Assembly (NCBI GenBank): GCA_020137815.1
Contig: CM035361.1
Span: forward strand, 5,394,001-5,458,000
From: Hormiphora californensis
Taxonomy: Eukaryota > Animalia > Ctenophora
Length of the DNA stretch: 64,000 nt
Reading direction: 5' to 3'
The notes under the pieces: model-generated
What the model saw: the letters and a program-made list of their open reading frames with translations, nothing else
Told to the model about the DNA's origin: nothing
The model's database searches: none
Program-made: the position numbers and the translations under genes
Shown: positions 623 to 59,429 of the stretch, one piece after another
Numbering within the stretch: the first letter of the stretch is position 1
Layout: every line of letters begins with the position of its first letter

Positions 623-1536
623 TCACACTTCCTCCACCTTGCCCCCTCGAATCCCAAATGTCTTCCCCGGCTCCGCCTCCTTCCTCTCCTTCAGCGCTAC
701 CACCAGCTTCCTCCTCTCCTCCGGAGAACGGTCAGGGGAAATATAGACATCTTTGTGCCTATCAGAGTTTTTCAGAGATTTCTTACTGGATAGTATTTGA
801 TCTCGGAAGTCTTTGCCACATAAACGTAGCTTACAGGCCTGTCAGAAGCCATCCTTATACTTCCCAAGTCGCTTCATACTGGAAATACCAGTAATACAAG
901 CACCCATACTGTTAAACACTCTCTTGATCTCGCTCTCCAGATCCTGATCGTTCTCAGCTTGTCATCAAACAGACCGTGAACAATAACATTGCTCGTCCTG
1001 TCCTCTGTCGCTACAGCAATAGCCTGACGTACTCGCTGCGGTGCTAGGGCAGTCTCACAATTCTTCTGGAGAACATTAGCAAATGATTTCATCTCCCTCT
1101 CAGCGGTAGTCTGCACAGCACTGATTTCACCGTCTCTCTTCTCCAACAGTTGACACTGTAGCTTAACTAAGCGGTCCTGTGCCTCAACTAACAAACGCTG
1201 CGCGGGTGATCAGCTCCTCTTGGCAGTCAATGATTCTCCTCTCACACTCCTCAGTTTCAATAGAAAGCTTATCAATAGCTGGGGTAACACCGCTCAACTA
1301 GCAAGCGACATGCCTTCTCTGCAAACTCAGCAAGTTCAGGTTTTCCCACTGGCCTTGATCTTACTCTTACTAGGACACTTCAGATTGTCCCAGAAACAGG
1401 AAGCTGAACTAGCAGACCAATTCTTGGGAAAGAATCTGCCCTCCTTCACATGAACGAAAAGTTCTCGCACTAGGTCCACAACTTCACTCTGAACCTCACG
1501 GTATACCCCCTTTGTCACTCTTTCATCACTGTTCAC
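623..1536 (-). pseudogene. Frameshifted non-LTR retrotransposon (CR1/L2-like) ORF1 remnant
   Basis: Joining minus-strand frames gives a coiled coil (LVEAQDRLVKLQCQLLEKRD), then EDRTSNVIVHGL, then MKRLGKYKDG..RPV.LRLCGKDFRDQILSSKKSLKNSDRHKDVYISPDRSPEERKLVVALKERKEAEPGKTFGIRGGKVEEV* (TGA at 623-625). This is the typical ORF1 RRM/CTD motif order (NxIxxGL, RLG, RP, VYIxPD, EER). Several frameshifts; no ORF2 follows. Confidence 0.75.
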
Positions 1537-40849: not shown

Positions 40850-44348
<3,499 letters not shown>

Positions 44349-45299: not shown

Positions 45300-46779
45300 T
45301 TTATATATGGCCTGAAACCATGAAATCTAGCATCTCAGGGCTGTGGCTATAAACTGAGGTTAATTGATCATATTTTCTCCCAGTATAGGAACATACATTG
45401 CACTGAGCAATCCCATATGTTATACATTTCCTTCAATATTATACATGCAAATTGCCTAAATATACACGTATAAACGGGAATTAGTTATAATTTATTATTT
45501 ACACAGAGGGATCGAGATCTGTAATTGTAGCTAGAGAGAGAGAGCGTCAGTGTGGCGAATGGTATACGATCTGAGATTGGTAACCATAGTAACAACATTG
45601 GTTGCTATAGTAACACACTGTACATTATACACACATGCAAGCTATTGGCCATGGGTTCAGAAACACTGTGGCTTGCATAATAGTATGATAATAGCGACCA
45701 CAGGAATTACATTCACTGCGGCGTGTAATTATATATCAAGTGATGTATGTCACATATGTTTGGTAATGTTCATAATTCACACATATAGTGTAGTGTAAAA
45801 CTCCGGTGTAGATATAAATTGGAGAAAGAAAAAGAAAAAAGAGAGGGAAAGAGAAGGAACAGAAAGAAAGAAAGAAAGAGAGGGGGAGAAAGAGAGCGAT
45901 CATGAGGGAGAGAAAGATAGATATCATATAGTTGTTGTACAGTGTGTGATTTTGAAAGAGATCGATAAAGCGAGACGTGCAGGCGAAACTTAACTGTTGT
46001 TTTATCAATTCCTATTTCTATAAATAAACTGAGTTTAATATTCTAGTTATACCATGACCTAAATTATTATCAGCCTTTGTGTGGGGGACGTATGGAAAAA
46101 ACAGTCGTGCCTGAATCTCAGGTCACGGCGCGGCTATTTAACCCTGATCGATCTCAGAATCTGAGACTCAGATCTTCTCTGAGATTTCAGGGAAGTTTTC
46201 AGGGAATAGCCAAAAATAGCCCTGAAATCTCGGATCTCAGGGGTAAATAATATTTACTAAATAGCCGTGAAACGAAGCTGTTTTCCCCTATAATAGAAGC
46301 AAAGAATTCTTGATGAGATGAGCAGGATTTCAGTTGAAATGGTAGGGAACCACTATTTTGGACGTAGAAACGCGTAAACTCTTTATTTTTGGACTCACGA
46401 TTCTCCCGCGGCTGATCAATGGCCAAGGATTTGGTACATAACAGGAACCGACCGAAACAAGTAAACAACCAATCAGAACTCGTTATTTAGGTCACGTGAC
46501 TGGTTATCAGCCAATCAGGGACCAATATTCACCATGGTTCGGTCGGTTGATGGTACATAACACGGAAGTTTCTTTTAACAGCTCTTGGTGACATATGGAG
46601 CGAGATCTTGCGCGGAGTGAACAGGTGGTAACATGGTGACAATTCTACAGGCGATGTATTCCGATACGGAATAATTTAATACCAGTATGTCACATACTAT
46701 GTGGGACTGTGTGTGTGTGTGTTTTGCACCGCCCGTCATTCCTCCCACTTTACTGCCCCACAATGGTCGGCAGACAACC

Positions 46780-47460: not shown

Positions 47461-49896
47461 TCACTCTTCGCCACCGTCCCCCACACGTAGGGATAATGTT
47501 GATGTTGTTCCGGTTTGGGTCCTGGTATTTTGTCGAGCAAGCTCAACATTTCCCTCGAACCTTCCCCGGCATCACAAGAAGAGTATTTGATACAGTGAAT
47601 CTAATAGTAGACTGACATACCTATATTGTCAGGACAATGGATGGAATTTACCTGTCTCACAGACTGGTCTCTGGTTACTACTGCTCCAAGGAGCTGTAGA
47701 GGTAGGTGGGTTGCCGGATATGACAATACCGTGGGTTCACCATCTAATCGGTGACGGCTGAAATATCTTATCACACCTCAGGTCTTGGGTCAAAACCGCT
47801 AGCAGTACTTATCAGCATGCAACCTGGGGGTCCGGACAGCTAATTTCTTAGCAAGCACAGATAAGCATGAAAACGCTTATGTAAACTTCTGGTGAGCATT
47901 TGGCAAATTATCGACTCCCAGGGGTTGCACTATTGCGGTGTAATTATTTGCCATACGGCGGAGGTGGCCATTTGTTTGGCCCAGACCTGCCCTACCACTC
48001 TTGGGTCCCTTATTGCGTTGTTATAGAAGAAAAATCCCCCATAAGTAGCGTTGCCCTTTAGTTTGCCACTTGTTCCAGGTCGGGATAGTTAGGGATGGTT
48101 TAATCGAATAGGTTACTTTTGGCTATTAGTTTGGAGAATTTTACCAAATCAAGTGTGTTGCTTGATCTGTTTGTTAGTGAGGAGGATTGTTCTAGATATA
48201 TTGCAAAGGTAGTATGTGGCAAAAATTTGGGCAGAGGTTCCCCAGGGGAATAACCCCTATTTTTGCGAGAGAAGGTAACCTCCGTCCGACCAATATGGGA
48301 TGTTGGACAGGAGGGCTGTTTTAAAGGCTACAGCTGCCGGGTGATTACAAATCATGGGTTGCCATAATTGAGGGAGGCTAGTTCTCTGGCGTAGAATTTA
48401 CCCCCATAATTAAATGGGAGACAGCCGAAGGGTCATCAGGCATGCCTAGTAGGCAGAGGCCCTCGGTGATTACAAATCATGGGTTGCCATGTGTAACAAG
48501 GTTACTGGCTGGGGTGAGATTATCAGTTCAACCGGGATCCTCACTAAGACTCAGCCCGACGACCGACCGACAAACGATCGATCAACGACTGATATCAATC
48601 GTCAACCAACCGCTCATCAATCGACCGCCGAACCAAATCCCAGCAGGGACCAGCCGCACTGCAAGAGCTCGGTGCCATAGTTGAGTTCGGCAAGGTCTCT
48701 GGCAAAGTTTACTCCCCAAGATTGGGGAGAGAGCCGGTGTGATTTGACCGTAATCACTGGACCATCAGCCAACCAGGTCCACGGCAACGGGACTGAGCTC
48801 GAAGAACTCAGCTGGCACGAAGAACCTGAGTTCCCCCCGCTGTATGTGGGACTGTAATGCGATTATCTTGCGGGCGCCGGGCTGTCTCACCTCTGTCTCA
48901 CACCCCTGCTTCATGACATTGAACTATGTTTTAGTACTGCAGTAAACTATATATACAGTCGGACCCCGATTTACCGGGATCATGCTCGGGGGAAAGGGTT
49001 TTGCCCGGTATATCGGGGGAATTTTATCCTCCCGGTAAATCGGGGTTCCGGTAAATCGGGGCCCGGTAAATCGGGGTCCGAATGTACTTACAACTGATCA
49101 CTGTTGAGAGCTCGCTATATTCCACTTCAACAGTCAACACCTCAGTACTTGTACACACAGCTGAACCTACTCCAAACACTCATAATATACATCATCAATT
49201 ATTTACTTTGGAGCTTCTTGTAATTCTCCCCTTTGTCTTCCACGCGGACTCTCTCTCTTTGATAGCTCTCTCGTGTGTGTACATTTTGGTTCCAGCTACT
49301 TTGCATCAACTTCTTCAGAAGCTCTCGTGTGGTTCCCGCGTTGTTTAAACAACAGATAGAGTTCTGCGGAGCTCAGCAGTTCTGCGGAGCTCAGCTACAT
49401 CTTCATTTTCTTTGTTACACTCGATCAGCTTTCGAATTTCGCTGTATATATCAAGCATTATACCTTCCAGAATCGAAAGAGAGTCGAAGAGAGGCATGCT
49501 ACTCATTAGCATTATAAAGAGAGATCCTACGCACTACACACTACTCACTATGAGATATAACTAGTTCATAGGAAGAAGACAAATTCTTGATCGCCACGCG
49601 TGTATTGCACTTGTAAATCATCTTTGCGAAATCCCTCTCTATAGATTTTGTGAGATATAGTTATAATGCTGTTTGCTTCTTGAATTTTTTCCATAATTTT
49701 GAACTTAGCTGATATCCTTTTGCGTATCCATGCAGCAGCACTAAAAAAAGCACTAAAAATCTTTGAGACCCCCCCCCCTATTTTACTCATCTCCCCTACT
49801 ATTATATAGATACATGGCTACCACAACAACAAACTTCCAGAGCAGCGACTAGCGAGAATTCTCTTCCATCATTGTGACAACTGGATCAGCTCCATT

Positions 49897-52512
49897 ATGT
49901 TCCATCGTCCTGACTTGGAGAGGGGGACAGGGTTTTTACAAATTATGCGATCAGCTGCAGCCCACCGATCGCAACAGAAACAAGGAATCCGTAAAAAGCG
50001 ACCACCAAAACAGCCTAAAAATGAGCTGGATCGATTCAACTGTCCTCACTGTAGGAAACGAAAGTACTTGGTAAAAGATCTCCAGTTGCAGCACATTAAA
50101 ACGTGTGGTGGTAAAAGGAGGAGGGGACCCCCTGATCCAAAGTGCCCCACTTGTTCATTGGCGGTGTCACCCCAACAAGTTCACCGGTGTAAAATTGATG
50201 ATCCCGATGAAAATGTGTGTCAGCTCATCCAGCCAGCTGAAAGACTCGAGAAGATTCTAAAAATAATTGAAAGATCTAATGAAGCAACTGAACGTCTGGT
50301 TGAAAAGTATAAAAAGTCAGGGAAGGAACGATTGCCCCACAAAACCAATTCTCCAAAGACTCCCCGATCACAGCGCCCCGATACAGATCAAGGATTCCAA
50401 TCAATCCACGAAGATGGTCCAATATTGAGCGATTACCCAAAACTCAGGACTTGTACAAGGTGTAACAATCCACTATCAACACACAAGACACGTAGTGGAC
50501 TGAAAAAGCGGAAAAAGAAAACTGTCCCAGTGTACCGGTGTCCAGAAAGGAAGCGAAGGAAAAGAGTAACTCCCCGGACCATCAGACGCTACAGATTCTC
50601 TCGGCTTCGCTTTGAACTCTCCCAATATCAGAACATCCACAGAACTGGTATATCCAATGCGAATCTGAACGAGAGGTGTCCTCATTGTAACCAGTGGGTC
50701 AGATACTCCTATATGGATACACATCTCTATGAGATATGTCCAAAGCGTTCCACAGAATGCTGTTATGTTTATCACTGGGATTTTAAGTGTCGAAAGAAGC
50801 AGTTTATCAGTCGGCAGTTCACTGTTAGCCCGTTCAACCAACTCCCGGAAGCCTCATTTTCTCAGGATATCATTGTTTATACAGCGGGGTGCATGGTTAT
50901 GGACTGTAAATGTGGCTGTGCATGGGTGATCGTAAAACCCGGATCAGAGCCCGAGAAGTTTGCAAAACATCTTTCTCCTCGGGGCGTTGGGAGGTTCGGT
51001 GCGGACTTATGTGCCATACTTCTCGCGGTTAAGAGTTTCTTGTCTCAACCATCTCGGATGGGGCCTACAATTCATTTTGTTACTGAAAACAAGCAGCTGC
51101 TTGATATATTGAGGCTGGGTCCACTCTCCTCCACTAACCTTCTCAACACGGTCAAATCTCTGAACCAGTTGGCGGGGTATGTTGATGTAACGTTGAATGG
51201 TATGGTGCTGAAGGGAGTTCCAGGGGCTGATTTGGTGAGGAACATGGCCCGATCAGCTGCATCTTCTCAAGGAGCCGTGGGGTACCACTTCAAATACACT
51301 GGTCTGGATATCAAGGTAAACCTGCTGAAACCTGAGCGACCAACGAGACAAACGGATTTCTTTTGTATAATTTGCTATCAATGGATTCTTTTTGACGAGT
51401 TCCCGCAACACCGGAAAACGTGTACAAAACCTCCTAAAAATGACACTGACGAAGATTCTGATGGAGCCCTTGAATCTTGGGAGGATTTGGACCGTTTTGA
51501 GGACTGTCCGCTATGCCATGAAGCGTTTCATTACAAAGAGTTATCCCAGCATATGGGGAAGGAGTGTGCTTGGAGAAGGGTTATTTATAACGTTTGTAAT
51601 TTCCGGGTGATCGCTCATGAGCTTCATTCCCACCTAAAGACAACTTGTATTGGACGAACTGGCCTGTTTCCGAGAATCCCAGTGAGATACAAAAAGAAGA
51701 AAAAGAGGGACCCGGATGAGAATGATTGTGAGAAACAAAATGATGATGTATTCGATCTACCAGAAGATTTACGAGCTATCCACACAGAGTTTCGCCCAAC
51801 TCGATATTTCATACTTCTACCCATAACCCTAGGAGAGTACCTCGCAGATGTCATCAGGTATCTGGATCTCTTCCGGAGAAGACGCCGTGAAAGTTACAGG
51901 TCGGCCCCATCCAATGATTCGGAGGTTATTGTTGCTTGCAGGAATCACGTTCGGTCGTGTGCAATGAACGTTAACCGTCAACAACTCCCACCAGTACCAG
52001 TTCCTCAGATAAAACCCCCGGTTTCGTCCCCAGGATCTTTTATTTTGTATTCAGAAGTTGTAGCTAAACAAACAGAACAGTCAGCAGTTAAACTGAAGAA
52101 GGATGTAACAAATCCAAAACGCTCCGAAGATCCTCAGCAAATGATGCCATGGGTCAATGAGGCCCAGTTCAAATCAGTATCTTCGCTTTGTTTTCCCAAG
52201 ACCAGTGATAAATTCATCGCTTTTGTTATGAGTATTGATAATCAGAGAAGTAGTGATAAGAGGTGTACAGATAATGCGGCCGATAATGATACGGTATTGA
52301 CTCTTGGGAAGTCAAAGTTTTCGATAAAGGGTCGGTTTAGTTCGGATCGGTTCCCTATTTCGTGCCGTTATTGTAAAATGCAGCTTGTGTCGAAAAAGGA
52401 AATGAGAAGACACGAAAAGAAATTCTGTGAATACCGACCTACCCGGTGTCAGTATTGTGACAAACTGGGAACTTTTAAAAAGATCAAAAAGCACACCGGG
52501 AAGTGTGTTTAG
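49897..52512 (+). CDS. Intronless 871-aa basic protein with multiple C2HC/TRAF-like zinc fingers and an RNase H-like domain
   Basis: Uninterrupted 2.6-kb ORF. Zinc-finger-like motifs: CPHC..HIKTC, CPTC..HRC, CPHC..HLYEICPKRSTEC, CIIC..HRKTC, CPLC..HMGKECAWR, CRYC..HEKKFCEYRPTRCQYC..HTGKC. The segment IIVYTAG..GCAWV..GADLCAILLAV..IHFVTEN..GVPGADLVRNMARSAA aligns by eye to the RNase H fold of non-LTR elements. Several basic NLS-like clusters are present. Confidence 0.85.
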   Translation: MFHRPDLERGTGFLQIMRSAAAHRSQQKQGIRKKRPPKQPKNELDRFNCPHCRKRKYLVKDLQLQHIKTCGGKRRRGPPDPKCPTCSLAVSPQQVHRCKIDDPDENVCQLIQPAERLEKILKIIERSNEATERLVEKYKKSGKERLPHKTNSPKTPRSQRPDTDQGFQSIHEDGPILSDYPKLRTCTRCNNPLSTHKTRSGLKKRKKKTVPVYRCPERKRRKRVTPRTIRRYRFSRLRFELSQYQNIHRTGISNANLNERCPHCNQWVRYSYMDTHLYEICPKRSTECCYVYHWDFKCRKKQFISRQFTVSPFNQLPEASFSQDIIVYTAGCMVMDCKCGCAWVIVKPGSEPEKFAKHLSPRGVGRFGADLCAILLAVKSFLSQPSRMGPTIHFVTENKQLLDILRLGPLSSTNLLNTVKSLNQLAGYVDVTLNGMVLKGVPGADLVRNMARSAASSQGAVGYHFKYTGLDIKVNLLKPERPTRQTDFFCIICYQWILFDEFPQHRKTCTKPPKNDTDEDSDGALESWEDLDRFEDCPLCHEAFHYKELSQHMGKECAWRRVIYNVCNFRVIAHELHSHLKTTCIGRTGLFPRIPVRYKKKKKRDPDENDCEKQNDDVFDLPEDLRAIHTEFRPTRYFILLPITLGEYLADVIRYLDLFRRRRRESYRSAPSNDSEVIVACRNHVRSCAMNVNRQQLPPVPVPQIKPPVSSPGSFILYSEVVAKQTEQSAVKLKKDVTNPKRSEDPQQMMPWVNEAQFKSVSSLCFPKTSDKFIAFVMSIDNQRSSDKRCTDNAADNDTVLTLGKSKFSIKGRFSSDRFPISCRYCKMQLVSKKEMRRHEKKFCEYRPTRCQYCDKLGTFKKIKKHTGKCV

Positions 52513-52925: not shown

Positions 52926-55900
52926 TCACAGTTTCCTGGTTCGTCTCCACAGGCACATCAGTGAGAGGAGAGAAAGGAGTAGGCCAAGGAAAAGGTTGCA
53001 AACCACGTTGGGGAACCAAATTGTCTGAAAATGGGGGAGATAAAGGGGTTATTGAGTGTAATAAAGTGGGTAATATATTACGACCGCTAGTAAAGATGAT
53101 AATGAAAATGAAATGTGACCCGATGATCACAGAATCACAATGTGTACCTCTTGAATTCCATAGATTGACAGGATTTGTTTTCCGTCCGTGTAGATACAGT
53201 CAAACCCAGCAGTATCATCGTTACACTCTGAAAACATGTGGTTACAATGGTTACACAACATGCTTACACACCATGGTTACCATGGTTACACAAAGTGGTT
53301 ACCATGGTTATTCAATATTAAAAACGTACCTATGACTCGCATGTCAGCGAACTCGTTCACCATGAGTGCGTTCCAGCTGTATCTAATCCAACTAAGATAC
53401 TTGACAGGGTAGAACCAGTATGGGGTGGAACTGGGGAGAGAAGTTGATATTTAGATATATCAACATATATTATATGGGCTAGTTAGTTACATGGGCGCGA
53501 AAATGGGCTCGTTAATGGCCGTAAACGCGCCCATTTTCACCAAATCGAATATGCGAGCTATACTAGGGTACTTTTCTATGACTAGAAACCTATGTTTCTG
53601 CACCGAAGAAGGAAGAACGGTATGATTAGGGGTGCGTGGTTACCGTGGTTACATACGCGTGGTAACCATGGTTACAGACGCGTGGTTACCATGGTTACAG
53701 ACGCGTGGTTACCATGGTTACAGACACGTGGTTACCATGGTTACAACGTTTTGTGAGGCATATGTTTCTACTTACTTGTCATTCTGATAAAGTCCACCAA
53801 ACAGGAAAAACGGCATGATGAGAGGAGCGTTGAGGGCGTTTGCAGTTGGCACACTGCCCGTCATTGATCCGGCAAACAATCCTGAGGATAGTTTGGTATT
53901 TATAGAGTGTTTCAATTGAGTTTAGATTAAGTTTAGGTTGTTTTTTAGACACCAAGGCCTTGAGAGCTGAATGCTGATGAATGTCAACGCACTAGTGAAT
54001 CAATCATACAATATATTCCACAAGAATTTACCTAAATTTGAAGCCACCCAGGCGGTGCTCATACATATCACGTATGCTGTGAAGAAGCTCCCTGCTGATG
54101 TTTCCAGTCCTGTAATTTGCAAAGTCATTATCAGTAAACAACCAATCAGAACTCTTTATTTAGCTTAGGTCACGTGATTAGTTATCAGCCAATCAGGGAC
54201 CAGCATTTCCTGATTCGGTCGGTTCCTGGTCATTATACCACCGCGGGATAACTCAAACTATAGCTACACTTATATCTTTGAAAAACAGTGTCCAATTGGA
54301 AGGGAAATATGCTGCAAAGAACAAAACCTCATAATCTCTCACCTGTAAGGAAGTAACTGAGGAGTAGCTGGACGAATACCAACACTATTATCTTAGGTAT
54401 GTTCATTAGGATGATACTCCAGAGGTATGATGCAATTCCATACATCCCAACACGGTATTCTTTCAGTAGGATCTGTGGTGGTATGAGTTATTTAGTACGA
54501 ACTATTATAGTTGTTGGAACCTATCTCAACAACGTTCTCAACAACGTTACTCAGAGAAAAGTATGAGAAATTCATGTGAAAATGCTAAAAGCTGAGTTTA
54601 ACAAATAACCACGTGGCTTAGAGGTAATGGGACGTGGATTTTTAATAAATCTTTAATCAAATTCTTACCGGGAAATCATTGGGTAGAACAGACGTATTTC
54701 CGAAGCTGAAAGCAAAGGTGAAGTTGGTTGTAAAAAAGAAGAGGAGTCCTCCCTTGTTCTGAGCTACCTCCTGGTCATTGTTTACCATGAAAAACGAGAT
54801 TCCGATCAGAATACCCCAAACCTGTAGCAGGAAATATATGCATTGGTACATAGTAAACATTAATTAATTAATTAGTTAATTAATTGATTAATCAAATGAT
54901 ATATATTGGTAAGAAGAAGATTGGATTATCGAATGGAGGAGTAGATTTGAATATATTTTGGGTTGCCGGGATATTGGTACAATTATTTTCAGTAAAATGT
55001 GGTTTAATTATTCACTAAAATGTGGTTTACTGGAGGGTGTATGTCAGGAACCGACCGAATCAGGAAATACTGGTCCCTGATTGGCTGATAACCAGTCACG
55101 TTACTTAAATAAAGAGTTCTGATTGGTTGTTTACTTGATTCGGTCGGTTCCTGGAGGGTGTAGTAACTCTTACCAGTGTCTCAATCCATCTACTCTTTGC
55201 AAGAGAGGGAGATCTCTTCGCTATCAAATAAGCTCGCTTCACATTTTCTATCAGCTGTGTGTAGGATGTCGACTGCATCTTCCCTCGACTGAAAAAGGAA
55301 TTGTGTGTTATGCGGGGCTGCTGAGGAAAGAATTGTGTGTGCAGTCTGAAATTGATAAACAGCTAAATAAATCAAGAACATTGCATTTATAGATTGGTGA
55401 AGAAGTAAATATGAATCGAATAAAGGAAACATAAAGGAAACATTAAATAACTAAAGAATTAATTAATAATTTTATCAATTAATTAAATCCTAATTTGTAC
55501 CTGATAAAAGGTGCACACTGATTTATCTTCTCCTCCATGTGAACCTTATCTTTTATCTCTCTGTACTGCCCTGACTTCTTGTAAAATGAAACCATTTCCT
55601 GGAGGAATTGCAACCATTAATAACTAATTATCACAATTAAATATAATTAAATACACACATATCAATTAATCAATATATATATTTACCCTGATACTAGCTA
55701 GGCATTTCTCCTTAATGCATGGTTGGATGGCCAGCTGGAATACAAAGTGATCCGCGGGGTTGTAATGAGAGGGACAGGGCCGTTTCATCGCTTCAAAGTG
55801 GGCCAGGGCATCTGATCGGTCACCAAAGTAGGCTATGTGGCCATCTGCCAGCAGACAAATCCTGAAAACAAGAAATAAATATCACTTTTTGTACGTGCAT

Positions 55901-57682
55901 GTAGGGAATTTGGGGAGAGCTGGGGAGAACTCTTCTAAACACGTTATAGACCTACATGGATATATAAAATCCTGAAAACATGGATATAAAACATTCTATT
56001 TTTGTTCAAACTCTGTGGTGTATGTATGTCATGGGTAATATAAAGTTAAGGGTTTTGCCCGCGGTAAATGAATTGGTGAAAGATGATGTGTACCTGTCGA
56101 ATAGGGCAAACACCTCGGAGCTAGGTTGATGTATTGTCATGAGAATGGTCCTGTTCGCAGCTGCCAGTTTTGAGATCAACTTAACCATGTTCTGCGCCAT
56201 AAAGGAATCAAGTCTGAAACAGAAATGGTATATTTAATATAGGGAGATGAATAAGTAATTTAAGTAAGTGATTAAATAAGTAAGTGATCAGTTTAAATTG
56301 TATATACAGTCGGTCCCCGATTTAGTGGACACCCCGATTTATATTAGTGGACAAAATCCTTTCCCCCGAGCATCCCGGTAAATCGGGGTCCGACTGTGTA
56401 TATTTTCACCCAGTATAATAGTGAATGATCAGTTTTACCATGCACATGTCACCGCGTGAAAAACAATGTTCAATTGTATTATAATTATACCCGCTAGTTG
56501 GTTCGTCCAAAAATAGCAGTGGTGGGTCCATGAGAAGCTCAACTGCGACAGAAAGCCTCTTCTTCTGGCCACCTGAGATACCTTTCATGCCCGTCCGGGC
56601 GTTGCCGATAATCGTGTTCTCGCATGACTTCAAACATAACTGGAATTGAAGAATTGTTCAACTGAACTGCTACTAAGTACATACGTTTTCTTATGTGCTT
56701 ATGTTATACTGGAATAGCTTGTACGTTACTGATTACTGAATTTAAATTTATATGTGACTTTATCAAAGTCTGTACGTGATTATGTAATTTGTGATTATGT
56801 GATTTACCTTGTCCATGATAGCTTCCACTTTCCGCATCCTTGTTTCCATGGGAATATCTTTGTCCATTCGGAGAGTAGCCTACAGAAGTGGAGTTTCATC
56901 AAACTTGATAAACATTTAGTATCCGAAGTAACAATCTCGTGTCACACGACGTATAATCAGTGAGGGGAAATAATCGTGCCTGAATCTGACTGTAATTTCC
57001 CCCAGTCAAGTAAAGATCTGTCTGGCGGCGCTGAGCTGTTCTTAACAGACAGATTAGCTAATATATATAGGGTAGCGACTGGCTATTTGAAATGGCGGCT
57101 AATTTGAAACACCCCATCAACAGGCCAGTAGGTGCACCAGATTTGGATTTTTAGACATCGTATCAGTTGGCTTGGCATGAGTTCTGACTAGCCCAATGAT
57201 ATCCAAAAATCCAGATCTGGTGCACCTACAGCTGGCCTGTAGAGGGGGTGTTTCAAACTAGCCACCATTTCAAATAGCCAGTCGCTACCCTATTGAACAA
57301 TACAGTTACCAAACACAACTTATTACGTACGTGAAATATAAGTGTTTCCCTGACAGTTAGAACTCCAATAAAGTTGTCCTCTTGTTCCACATATGCGCTG
57401 ACAAGGGACATTTGGCGTCTTTCAATTGGCCAACCGTTCAAATGAATTGTACCTAAAATGAATTTTGATCAAGAAACATTTCTAAAAACAGCTCATACTA
57501 GTAATTACATAGTTAACATTGCATTTACTACATACTATAAAGTATTTGGAAAATGTCTGATATACCTGTTGTTTTGAAGTTACACATTTTCCTCTGGGCC
57601 AGGGTGTTGAGAAGTGTAGTTTTCCCGGATCCACTAGACCCGAGAATGGCAACAAACTGTCCTGGCTCCACATATCCCGATA
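52926..57682 (-). CDS. ABCG half-transporter (white/scarlet-like); 15 exons found, 5' exon(s) not located
   Basis: Exons 57566-57682, 57331-57452, 56808-56879, 56491-56639, 56094-56213, 55687-55861, 55501-55598, 55174-55288, 54669-54821, 54343-54472, 54032-54109, 53776-53881, 53330-53430, 53148-53227 and 52926-53024. Motifs: Walker [16 protein letters not shown], signature ISGGQKKR, Walker [53 protein letters not shown] precedes TMD. Confidence 0.95.
57068..57292. mobile_element. About 225-bp foldback MITE in an ABCG intron
   Basis: tagggtagcgactggctatttgaaatgg...taggtgcaccagat is mirrored by atctggtgcaccta...ccatttcaaatagccagtcgctacccta. Confidence 0.8.
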
Positions 57683-57690
57683 CTGAAATG

Positions 57691-58040
57691 TGTCATGTGT
57701 CACGTGATGCCCAAATATGGTGTCATGTGTCACGTGATGCCCAAATATGGTGTTATGTGTCACGTGATGCCCAAATATGGTGTCATGTGTCACGTGATGC
57801 CCAAATATGGTGTTATGTGTCACGTGATGCCCAAATATGGTGTCATGTGTCACGTGATGCCAAAATATGGTGTTATGTGTCACGTGATGCCCAAATATGG
57901 TGTCATGTGTCACGTGATGCCAAAATATGGTGTTATGTGTCACGTGATGCCCAAATATGGTGTCATGTGTCACGTGATGCCCAAATATGGTGTTATGTGT
58001 CACGTGATGCCCAAATATGGTGTTATGTGTCACGTGATGC
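57691..58040. repeat. 30-bp tandem array (11 full units plus a partial one): tgt(c/t)atgtgtcacgtgatgcccaaatatgg
   Basis: Nearly perfect units with a c/t alternation that gives a 60-bp higher-order period. It generates the [20 protein letters not shown] and CHVMPKYGVM ORFs. Confidence 0.97.
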
Positions 58041-58949: not shown

Positions 58950-59429
58950 GACCTATACACAGCGTATGTATGGCGACATTTAAAGGATTCTGACCTGAAA
59001 CGTCTACAGAAAGTTCAGAACGTCTACAGAAAGTTCAGAACAGTGCGACACGATACATATATGGGAAAAGAGGAAAACGCGGTGTAACAAAACTTCGCAT
59101 GAAATCACACTTCTTGCCTGTGAAACAGCGAATAGAGTACAAAATTTGCTCGATGGTATACAAGATTCTTCATGATCAATCCATACATGTCTGAGATGTT
59201 AGTGAAGCGGCCCCAGAAAGTGAAATCACTCCGAGTGGATAATGACGTCACCGCTCTGAAAGAGGCGCGGAGGAGTGAGTACCACTACGAGAACACTAGA
59301 GGCGCTTTCAGTATTGCTGCACCTAAATTATGGAATCAGCTACCACGATCAATCGGGGACTCAGAATCCCTTACTACTTTTAAAACATCCCTGAAGACGC
59401 ACTTGTTCTTTAGAGCATACAACCAATGA
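58950..59429 (+). mobile_element. 5'-truncated L2/CR1 LINE ORF2 C-terminal fragment
   Basis: LKRLQKVQN.ATRYIYG..HFLPVKQRIEYKICSMVYKILH..YMSEML..GAFSIAAPKLWNQLP..SLTTFKTSLKTHLF..* is the typical L2/CR1 tail. It carries a 20-bp duplication (aacgtctacagaaagttcag) and a frameshift. Confidence 0.9.

Follow-up and report, generated by a model that had tools for sequence, protein, structure and literature searches.

Domesticated parts of transposons are common, and most are transposases, gag, env or integrases. Factors derived from transposable elements have been documented in the comb jelly Pleurobrachia, and a term search of that survey returned no mention of RNase (PMC10027918). RNase H enzymes are described as relying on a catalytic set of D-E-D-H/R-D residues (PMC4640811). 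The C-terminus of the retrotransposon L1Tc is reported to carry an active RNase H, then a pair of C2H2 fingers along with basic stretches, and to act as a nucleic-acid chaperone (PMC5814959). RNase H folds without catalysis are described as well, namely the RNase H-like domain of Prp8 and the connection domain of retroviral reverse transcriptase (RT) (PMC5603734). At the level of titles and abstracts, with few subscription papers included, the literature yielded neither a protein that joins TRAF fingers to RNase H nor a description of the gene reported here. At the same title and abstract level, no account was found of a restriction factor that a host had derived from a non-LTR RNase H.

The locus examined here lies in a 64,000-nucleotide stretch of the genome of the ctenophore Hormiphora californensis (hereafter the window), and is a real, selected and lineage-restricted gene that encodes a probable RNase H pseudo-enzyme. 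The original prediction of a clean 871-codon reading frame was borne out: 100 shuffles of the window between 43 and 60 kb gave no stop-free frame longer than 195 amino acids. Its further description as intronless holds in the sense of an unbroken reading frame only. The predicted protein is basic (160 Lys/Arg residues versus 93 Asp/Glu residues), and its Lys/Arg-rich stretch likely serves nuclear localisation or nucleic-acid binding.

Features of the reading frame and of its predicted protein, in window positions
Feature	Position	Strand	Basis or remark
Unbroken 871-codon ORF	49897..52512	+	ATG 49897, TAG 52512, 871 aa, stop-free inside
C2HC finger 1, residues 49-70	50041..50106	+	
Lys/Arg-rich stretch, residues 200-245	50494..50631	+	within region 85% identical to P. 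bachei
C2HC finger preceding the RNase H-like domain, residues 261-281	50677..50739	+	
Predicted type 1 RNase H fold, no basic protrusion, residues 323-458	50863..51270	+	profile, Atlas, seeded model
Catalytic positions	A330 50884; D370 51004; E397 51085; V441 51217; R448 51238	+	33-domain alignment
Three C2HC TRAF-like fingers, residues 490-509, 537-557, 564-584	51364..51648	+	
Finger with 45-nt in-frame deletion in the window haplotype	51925..51966	+	intact in P. bachei and second-sample contigs
C-terminal C2HC finger pair	52363..52506	+	best zf-TRAF match, 18.8 bits (cut-off 27)

The surrounding genes had been characterized as finely split by introns. This is correct for the ABCG transporter gene on the opposite strand, whose exons reach down to about 53150 with the last exon not fixed, but not for the upstream Kv channel gene, which is on the same strand, is read in three coding stretches, one of them of roughly 790 nt, and ends near 42600. 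Given these limits, the possibility that the ORF is nested in an intron of a neighbour was rejected. Inverted repeats at 46442-46529 and 55066-55153 were also rejected as element termini around the ORF, since they are short and very deeply covered repeats, and the span between them takes in ABCG exons. The claim that RT and endonuclease sequences are missing nearby stood: none of 148 flanking frames of at least 45 amino acids (43.9-60.6 kb) matches an RT, endonuclease or transposase family of Pfam at E ≤ 0.05. Within the ORF, Pfam detects no RT or endonuclease domain, and the region from 46 to 56 kb has no Rfam matches.

Relatives of the protein are confined to a narrow group. Three length-binned searches over 5.8 billion proteins returned only P0002 (877 amino acids), P0003 (493 amino acids) and P0005 (365 amino acids), and none was detected in this collection outside the Pleurobrachia side of the ctenophores. 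P0002 and P0003 are EukProt entries of Pleurobrachia bachei, and P0005 shares their source and name format; two of the three models begin with the same MFHRP as the window ORF. P0005 covers the front and P0003 the back of the protein without overlap, and they are 88% and 87% identical, respectively, to P0002. They therefore probably represent one second P. bachei copy, so that the three models would correspond to two loci. HMMER with the middle domain against 1.84 billion representatives gave two matches, P0003 and the repeat protein P0004, the latter of which was rejected as a relative because the match spans 41 residues of a bacterial-type repeat and is put down to chance. A metagenome locus search gave 588 pattern matches, none of which was confirmed.

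Alignment with P0002 shows conservation of the gene in P. bachei that is strongest in the RNase H-like domain. Residues 301-480 are identical at 168 of 180 positions (93%), compared with 511 of 667 elsewhere (Fisher p 9e-8), with finger regions at 79-85%, the N-terminus at 74% and linkers at 59-76%. Among alleles, at least 50 differences were listed, affecting 46 codons (21 synonymous, 25 non-synonymous); pN/pS on this partial list, which may include paralogue differences, is ~0.34 rather than near 1 (p 3e-4 versus neutrality). Each of the four listed changes within the domain is conservative or brings back the P. bachei residue. As is demanded of a domesticated gene derived from a transposable element, the ORF is intact and appears to be under purifying selection across species, and its proposed status as a conserved host gene gains support from both the identity to P. 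bachei and the allelic ratio.

Copy number and transcription were assessed from assembled contigs. Contig depth, which is not a copy number, was 23-51 over the ORF (run X1) versus 24-39 for unique flanks, and most repeat bins exceeded 1000. By depth the ORF thus resembles unique DNA, but loose contig ends at 50873, 50928 and 50935 from three runs read on in frame, as judged by eye, as a diverged version of the domain, and therefore at least one diverged paralogue evidently exists. RNA contigs of 159 and 226 nt came from one oligo-dT metatranscriptome that also covered repeats and so count as weak evidence, and one run of the organism guessed to be RNA contained no ORF contigs.

These paralogous ends, the two similar P. 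bachei copies (87-88% identical) and two finger-breaking variants in the window haplotype (see below) are what might be seen if the ORF were an accessory gene carried by a mobile element of low copy number, or a fragment that was captured recently and is now in decay. We regard this as most improbable, given that the flanks lack transposase, RT and endonuclease sequences, that depth over the ORF is like that of unique DNA and that the domain-specific constraint holds across species. In addition, a weak search of 3080 candidates found no longer fused form of the protein.

Residues ~323-458 are very likely to adopt an RNase H fold, as had been proposed from the motifs YTAG, ADLCAI, TEN and GADLVRNMA, which begin at residues 328, 369, 396 and 443. 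A blind ESM Atlas feature search with residues 310-475 gave scores of 0.90-0.93 for the best five clusters listed, where shuffled proteins attain 0.9 in 4-10% of cases. Three of these five clusters carry RNase_H or RVT_3 families and four are named or annotated as such; likewise, the best 10 family-bearing matches all (10/10) come from one clan. Shared-feature counts ranged from 137 to 164, below the 170 typical of same-family matches. When the whole of P0002 was used instead, the nearest clusters were a diatom RVT_3+C2H2 cluster (0.88), two euglenozoan RNase_H+C2H2 clusters (0.83 and 0.78) and a plant cluster (0.76).

Sequence searches with the domain against Pfam, NCBIfam, PHROGs and the PDB returned no RNase H match, and the isolated domain matched no Pfam family at E ≤ 10, so that it falls below the RNase_H and RVT_3 cut-offs. 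A reference set of natural non-LTR-type RNase H domains was collected by motif, with 120 loci reduced to 47 that are in frame and stop-free and to 33 after a 70% identity filter, and all six of the domains tested pass Pfam RNase_H. An HMM of these 33 domains scores the segment at 11.3 bits, a value reached by none of 2000 shuffles (maximum 4.4) and by none of 2000 shuffles in which both anchor motifs were kept fixed (maximum 8.7). A second test with anchored shuffles likewise gave 0/300. When both anchor motifs were masked the pairwise signal was gone (z 0.5; 93/300 shuffles), and the evidence for an RNase H relationship is therefore real but thin. With a bacterial/viral RNase HI profile, 8 of 1000 shuffles scored at or above the real sequence, and hhalign against bacterial/viral RNase HI was not significant.

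Structure prediction, which had been proposed as a check on the domain, gave a divided answer. AlphaFold seeded with RNase H domains produced a model with a pLDDT of 84.6 that has a five-stranded sheet and helices A, B, D and E in RNase H order. This model matches type 1 RNase H closely (Foldseek E 2e-9; VIA Z 16.9, rmsd 2.6, 132 residues aligned), which shows compatibility with the fold in a manner dependent on the RNase H seed sequences. The unseeded single-sequence model had a pLDDT of 34.8 and was uninformative in Foldseek; its strands and helices follow the RNase H order except for strand 3. The uniformly negative blind sequence searches, the negative masked-anchor test and the seeding of the good model would suit an orphan alpha/beta domain that happens to contain a few similar-looking motifs, but a coincidental resemblance of this kind is very unlikely in light of the two Atlas searches that point to RNase H, the anchored shuffles (0/2000 and 0/300) and the element order kept by the unseeded model.

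In the alignment with the 33 natural domains, the D-E-D-H-D set reads A330, D370, E397, V441 and R448, where V441 was placed by hand, and P0002 has identical residues at the aligned positions. The original prediction held that all four acidic positions are altered. All four are indeed changed, but two are acid-for-acid swaps (E to D370, D to E397), and an acid is lost at two columns only (D to A330, D to R448). The predicted loss of catalysis is nevertheless supported by the set as a whole, in which the histidine of the catalytic loop is also replaced. Given the fold, two-metal cleavage has very likely been lost, because Ala replaces the first Asp and Arg the last. Residue D210 of human RNase H1 is the first Asp of the catalytic set. 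The substitution D210N alone is reported to inactivate the human enzyme, and the inactivated catalytic domain to retain binding to hybrids (PMC8266564). In the window ORF, conserved neighbours of the active site are changed as well (S to G365, S to N398, N to A444 and W to V437), and hybrid binding therefore cannot be assumed.

A retroelement origin, by reverse-transcribed insertion beside or inside a C2HC-finger gene, is moderately probable; such an insertion next to or within the finger gene would yield an ORF without introns. Pfam detects no RNase H1 N-terminal hybrid-binding domain in the protein, and the seeded model has only a five-residue loop between helices B and D, and so no basic protrusion. 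Together with the lack of introns, these two absences favour a retroelement donor. In a quick tree of 66 rows, whose reference set was motif-selected for the non-LTR type and includes neither eukaryotic RNase H1 nor RVT_3, the domain falls on the non-LTR side (SH-aLRT 97). The stem leading to it, 6.0 changes per site long, is flagged as a long branch, and the tips beyond it measure 0.015 and 0.054. This pattern fits large change followed by strong constraint, and would be compatible with co-option. A search of five prokaryote genomes for RVT_3 references gave none (0/5), and the non-LTR RNase H motif was found in no viral contigs.

The retrotransposon origin first proposed is thus plausible, but it is not distinguished from an alternative in which the source was an RNase H of cellular or archaeal (RVT_3) type. 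In the latter case the domain would derive from a retrocopy of RNase H1 or from an archaeal-type protein, and the gene would reflect gene duplication, not transposon domestication. The best whole-protein Atlas match, to the diatom RVT_3+C2H2 cluster (0.88), agrees with such a source, as do the top structural matches of the seeded model, which comprise archaeal-type RNase H and human RNase H1 within 1 Z unit of each other; the tree, moreover, contains no sequences of the RNase H1 or RVT_3 kind. We nonetheless consider a cellular source unlikely. A hybrid-binding domain is lacking, as is the basic protrusion in the seeded model, and the domain scores no better than shuffles with bacterial/viral RNase HI (z 0.0-0.6), versus a z of 7.5 with the motif-selected non-LTR set. 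Furthermore, the fifth residue is not the Arg described as marking archaeal-type RNase H (PMC4640811).

Outside this domain the protein is organized around Cys/His fingers. About seven had been counted originally; fingers of the form C-x2-C-x9-16-H-x2-4-C number six intact in the window allele and eight in P0002, two being broken only in the window haplotype. The finger at residues 564-584 has lost its first Cys in the window haplotype (C564Y), and other contigs read G at 51587, which specifies Cys564. The second carries a 45-nt in-frame deletion near 51941, where loose ends from the second sample, at 51941 and 51945, supply the 15 missing residues. In the first sample, too, contigs are interrupted here, which points to heterozygosity more than to faulty assembly. 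The window haplotype tolerates the loss of two fingers, an observation that we count against the functional reading preferred below.

The fingers follow the TRAF-like pattern, as anticipated, but their zf-TRAF (PF02176) scores of 18.8 bits for P0001, 15.3 for P0002 and 19.8 for P0003 are all below the cut-off of 27, and weak matches also occur to CEP104_ZnF and TRAFD1-XIAF1_ZnF. By these scores the fingers are TRAF-like, not members of zf-TRAF, and Pfam detects no RING or MATH domain in the protein. The range of weak matches raises the possibility of a TRAFD1/XAF1-like adaptor that acts in immune or ubiquitin signalling and whose dead fold would be a protein-contact or structural module that does not bind nucleic acid. 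The changed neighbours of the active site are in keeping with this, and the 136-residue domain is itself only mildly basic (14 Lys/Arg, 9 Asp/Glu) and contains five cysteines. An adaptor is unlikely, however, as the protein overall is strongly basic and has an NLS-like stretch, the finger matches are below cut-off, and RING and MATH domains are absent.

We tentatively prefer a reading in which this is a conserved comb-jelly host gene whose dead RNase H, likely captured from a non-LTR retrotransposon, serves as a non-cutting nucleic-acid-binding module of a nuclear protein. The dead fold, together with the Arg in the former active site and the basic stretch, would clamp RNA or an RNA:DNA duplex, and the TRAF-like fingers would recruit partner proteins. 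This combination of clamping and recruitment is possible, if somewhat short of probable. A more specialized role, which we consider quite unlikely, is that of a ctenophore decoy against retrotransposons. A LINE-derived dead RNase H would then bind the RNA:cDNA hybrid of target-primed reverse transcription, or R-loops, and the fingers would bring in the machinery of ubiquitination or silencing; variability among the fingers, linkers and paralogues would then be a sign of an arms race.

If the preferred reading of a co-opted, non-cutting module is true, a dead RNase H that stands alone and is strongly constrained would be a new donor domain for domestication, found among the earliest-branching animal lineages, and a natural parallel to the dead RNase H1 engineered for probing R-loops. 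The significance of the gene is limited by its narrow range, by an origin that is likely only, by weak evidence of expression, and by the recurrence of fusions between RNase H and fingers elsewhere. The domain, at 136 residues, should be easy to express and assay.

Compared with the RNase H of I-group non-LTR retrotransposons (PF00075; clades as described in PMC4640811), the domain has a similar order and spacing of motifs and a predicted fold that also lacks the basic protrusion. It differs in that all five D-E-D-H-D residues are changed, identity is 9-21% and no RT or endonuclease accompanies it, whereas an autonomous non-LTR element carries endonuclease and RT upstream of RNase H. In L1Tc/ingi elements, as here, RNase H, zinc fingers and basic stretches are present in one chain. 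The fingers of the window ORF are C2HC and TRAF-like and occur on both sides of the domain, whereas those of L1Tc are C2H2 and only downstream, and L1Tc has an active RNase H placed after an RT. The euglenozoan RNase_H+C2H2 clusters of the Atlas may be such L1Tc/ingi C-termini.

The diatom RVT_3+zf-C2H2 and plant RVT_3+zf-met clusters are also short RNase H and finger proteins with no RT in their labels, but they have C2H2 fingers, are 266-323 amino acids long and score under 0.9, and so serve as a lead only. The architecture, which was not recognized when the ORF was first noticed, is accordingly less unique than it seemed, since proteins with RNase H and fingers occur in diatoms, euglenozoans and plants and in the L1Tc C-terminus as described (PMC5814959). 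These known proteins differ in that their fingers are C2H2-type and their active site, in those cases where it is described, is intact. Prp8 and the RT connection domain resemble the window ORF in retaining a dead RNase H fold, but they are ancient, universal in their own groups and free of zinc-finger fusions, and they match the seeded model with a Z of ~7. Finally, the tandem C-x2-C-x11/12-H-x3/4-C fingers are shared with TRAF and with TRAFD1/XAF1, whereas in the window ORF these fingers score below the Pfam cut-off, stand without RING or MATH and are joined to an added RNase H-like domain.

The predicted RNase H-like domain of the ORF carries five cysteines in its first half (C332, C337, C339, C341 and C372; window 50863-51020), all of which are retained in the comb jelly Pleurobrachia bachei. 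These residues could possibly form a new metal or disulfide site.

Several stretches within window 1900-40000 contain long AG/CT microsatellites and homopolymer-rich sequence, and look like poorly polished long-read sequence. The ORF region itself agrees with short-read contigs. At window 49926-49972, contigs from a second sample (runs X5 and X6) depart in frame directly past codon 10 of the ORF, a pattern that would reflect either a strong between-sample difference at the N-terminus or an N-terminus derived from a paralogue whose upstream region is conserved.

The ORF and the ABCG-type gene are convergently oriented. Coding stretches of the potassium channel gene specify the T1 domain, S1-pore and S6, with S1-pore encoded by a single exon of ~790 nt. 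Palindromic repeats in the window reach contig depths of 10^4 to 10^6. Both LINE-like fragments are distant from the ORF, and a Pfam scan of frames flanking the ORF returned no match for the RT-like one.

Genes, repeats and LINE-like fragments in the window
Feature	Position	Strand	Structure or basis
Presumed LINE ORF1-like fragment	877-1209	-	
Shaker-type voltage-gated potassium channel gene	41240-42600	+	three coding stretches
Short palindromic MITE-like repeat	48954-49086		contig depth
Short palindromic MITE-like repeats	46442-46562, 54133-54228, 55045-55153		contig depth
ABCG-type half transporter	about 53150-57700	-	many short exons
Presumed fragment resembling LINE RT C-terminal end	59136-59426	+	

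Proteins joining RNase H to zinc fingers also occur elsewhere. A diatom RVT_3+C2H2 cluster (96 members, 323 aa) and a plant RVT_3+zf-met cluster (55 members, 266 aa) in the ESM Atlas suggest that such proteins have originated repeatedly.
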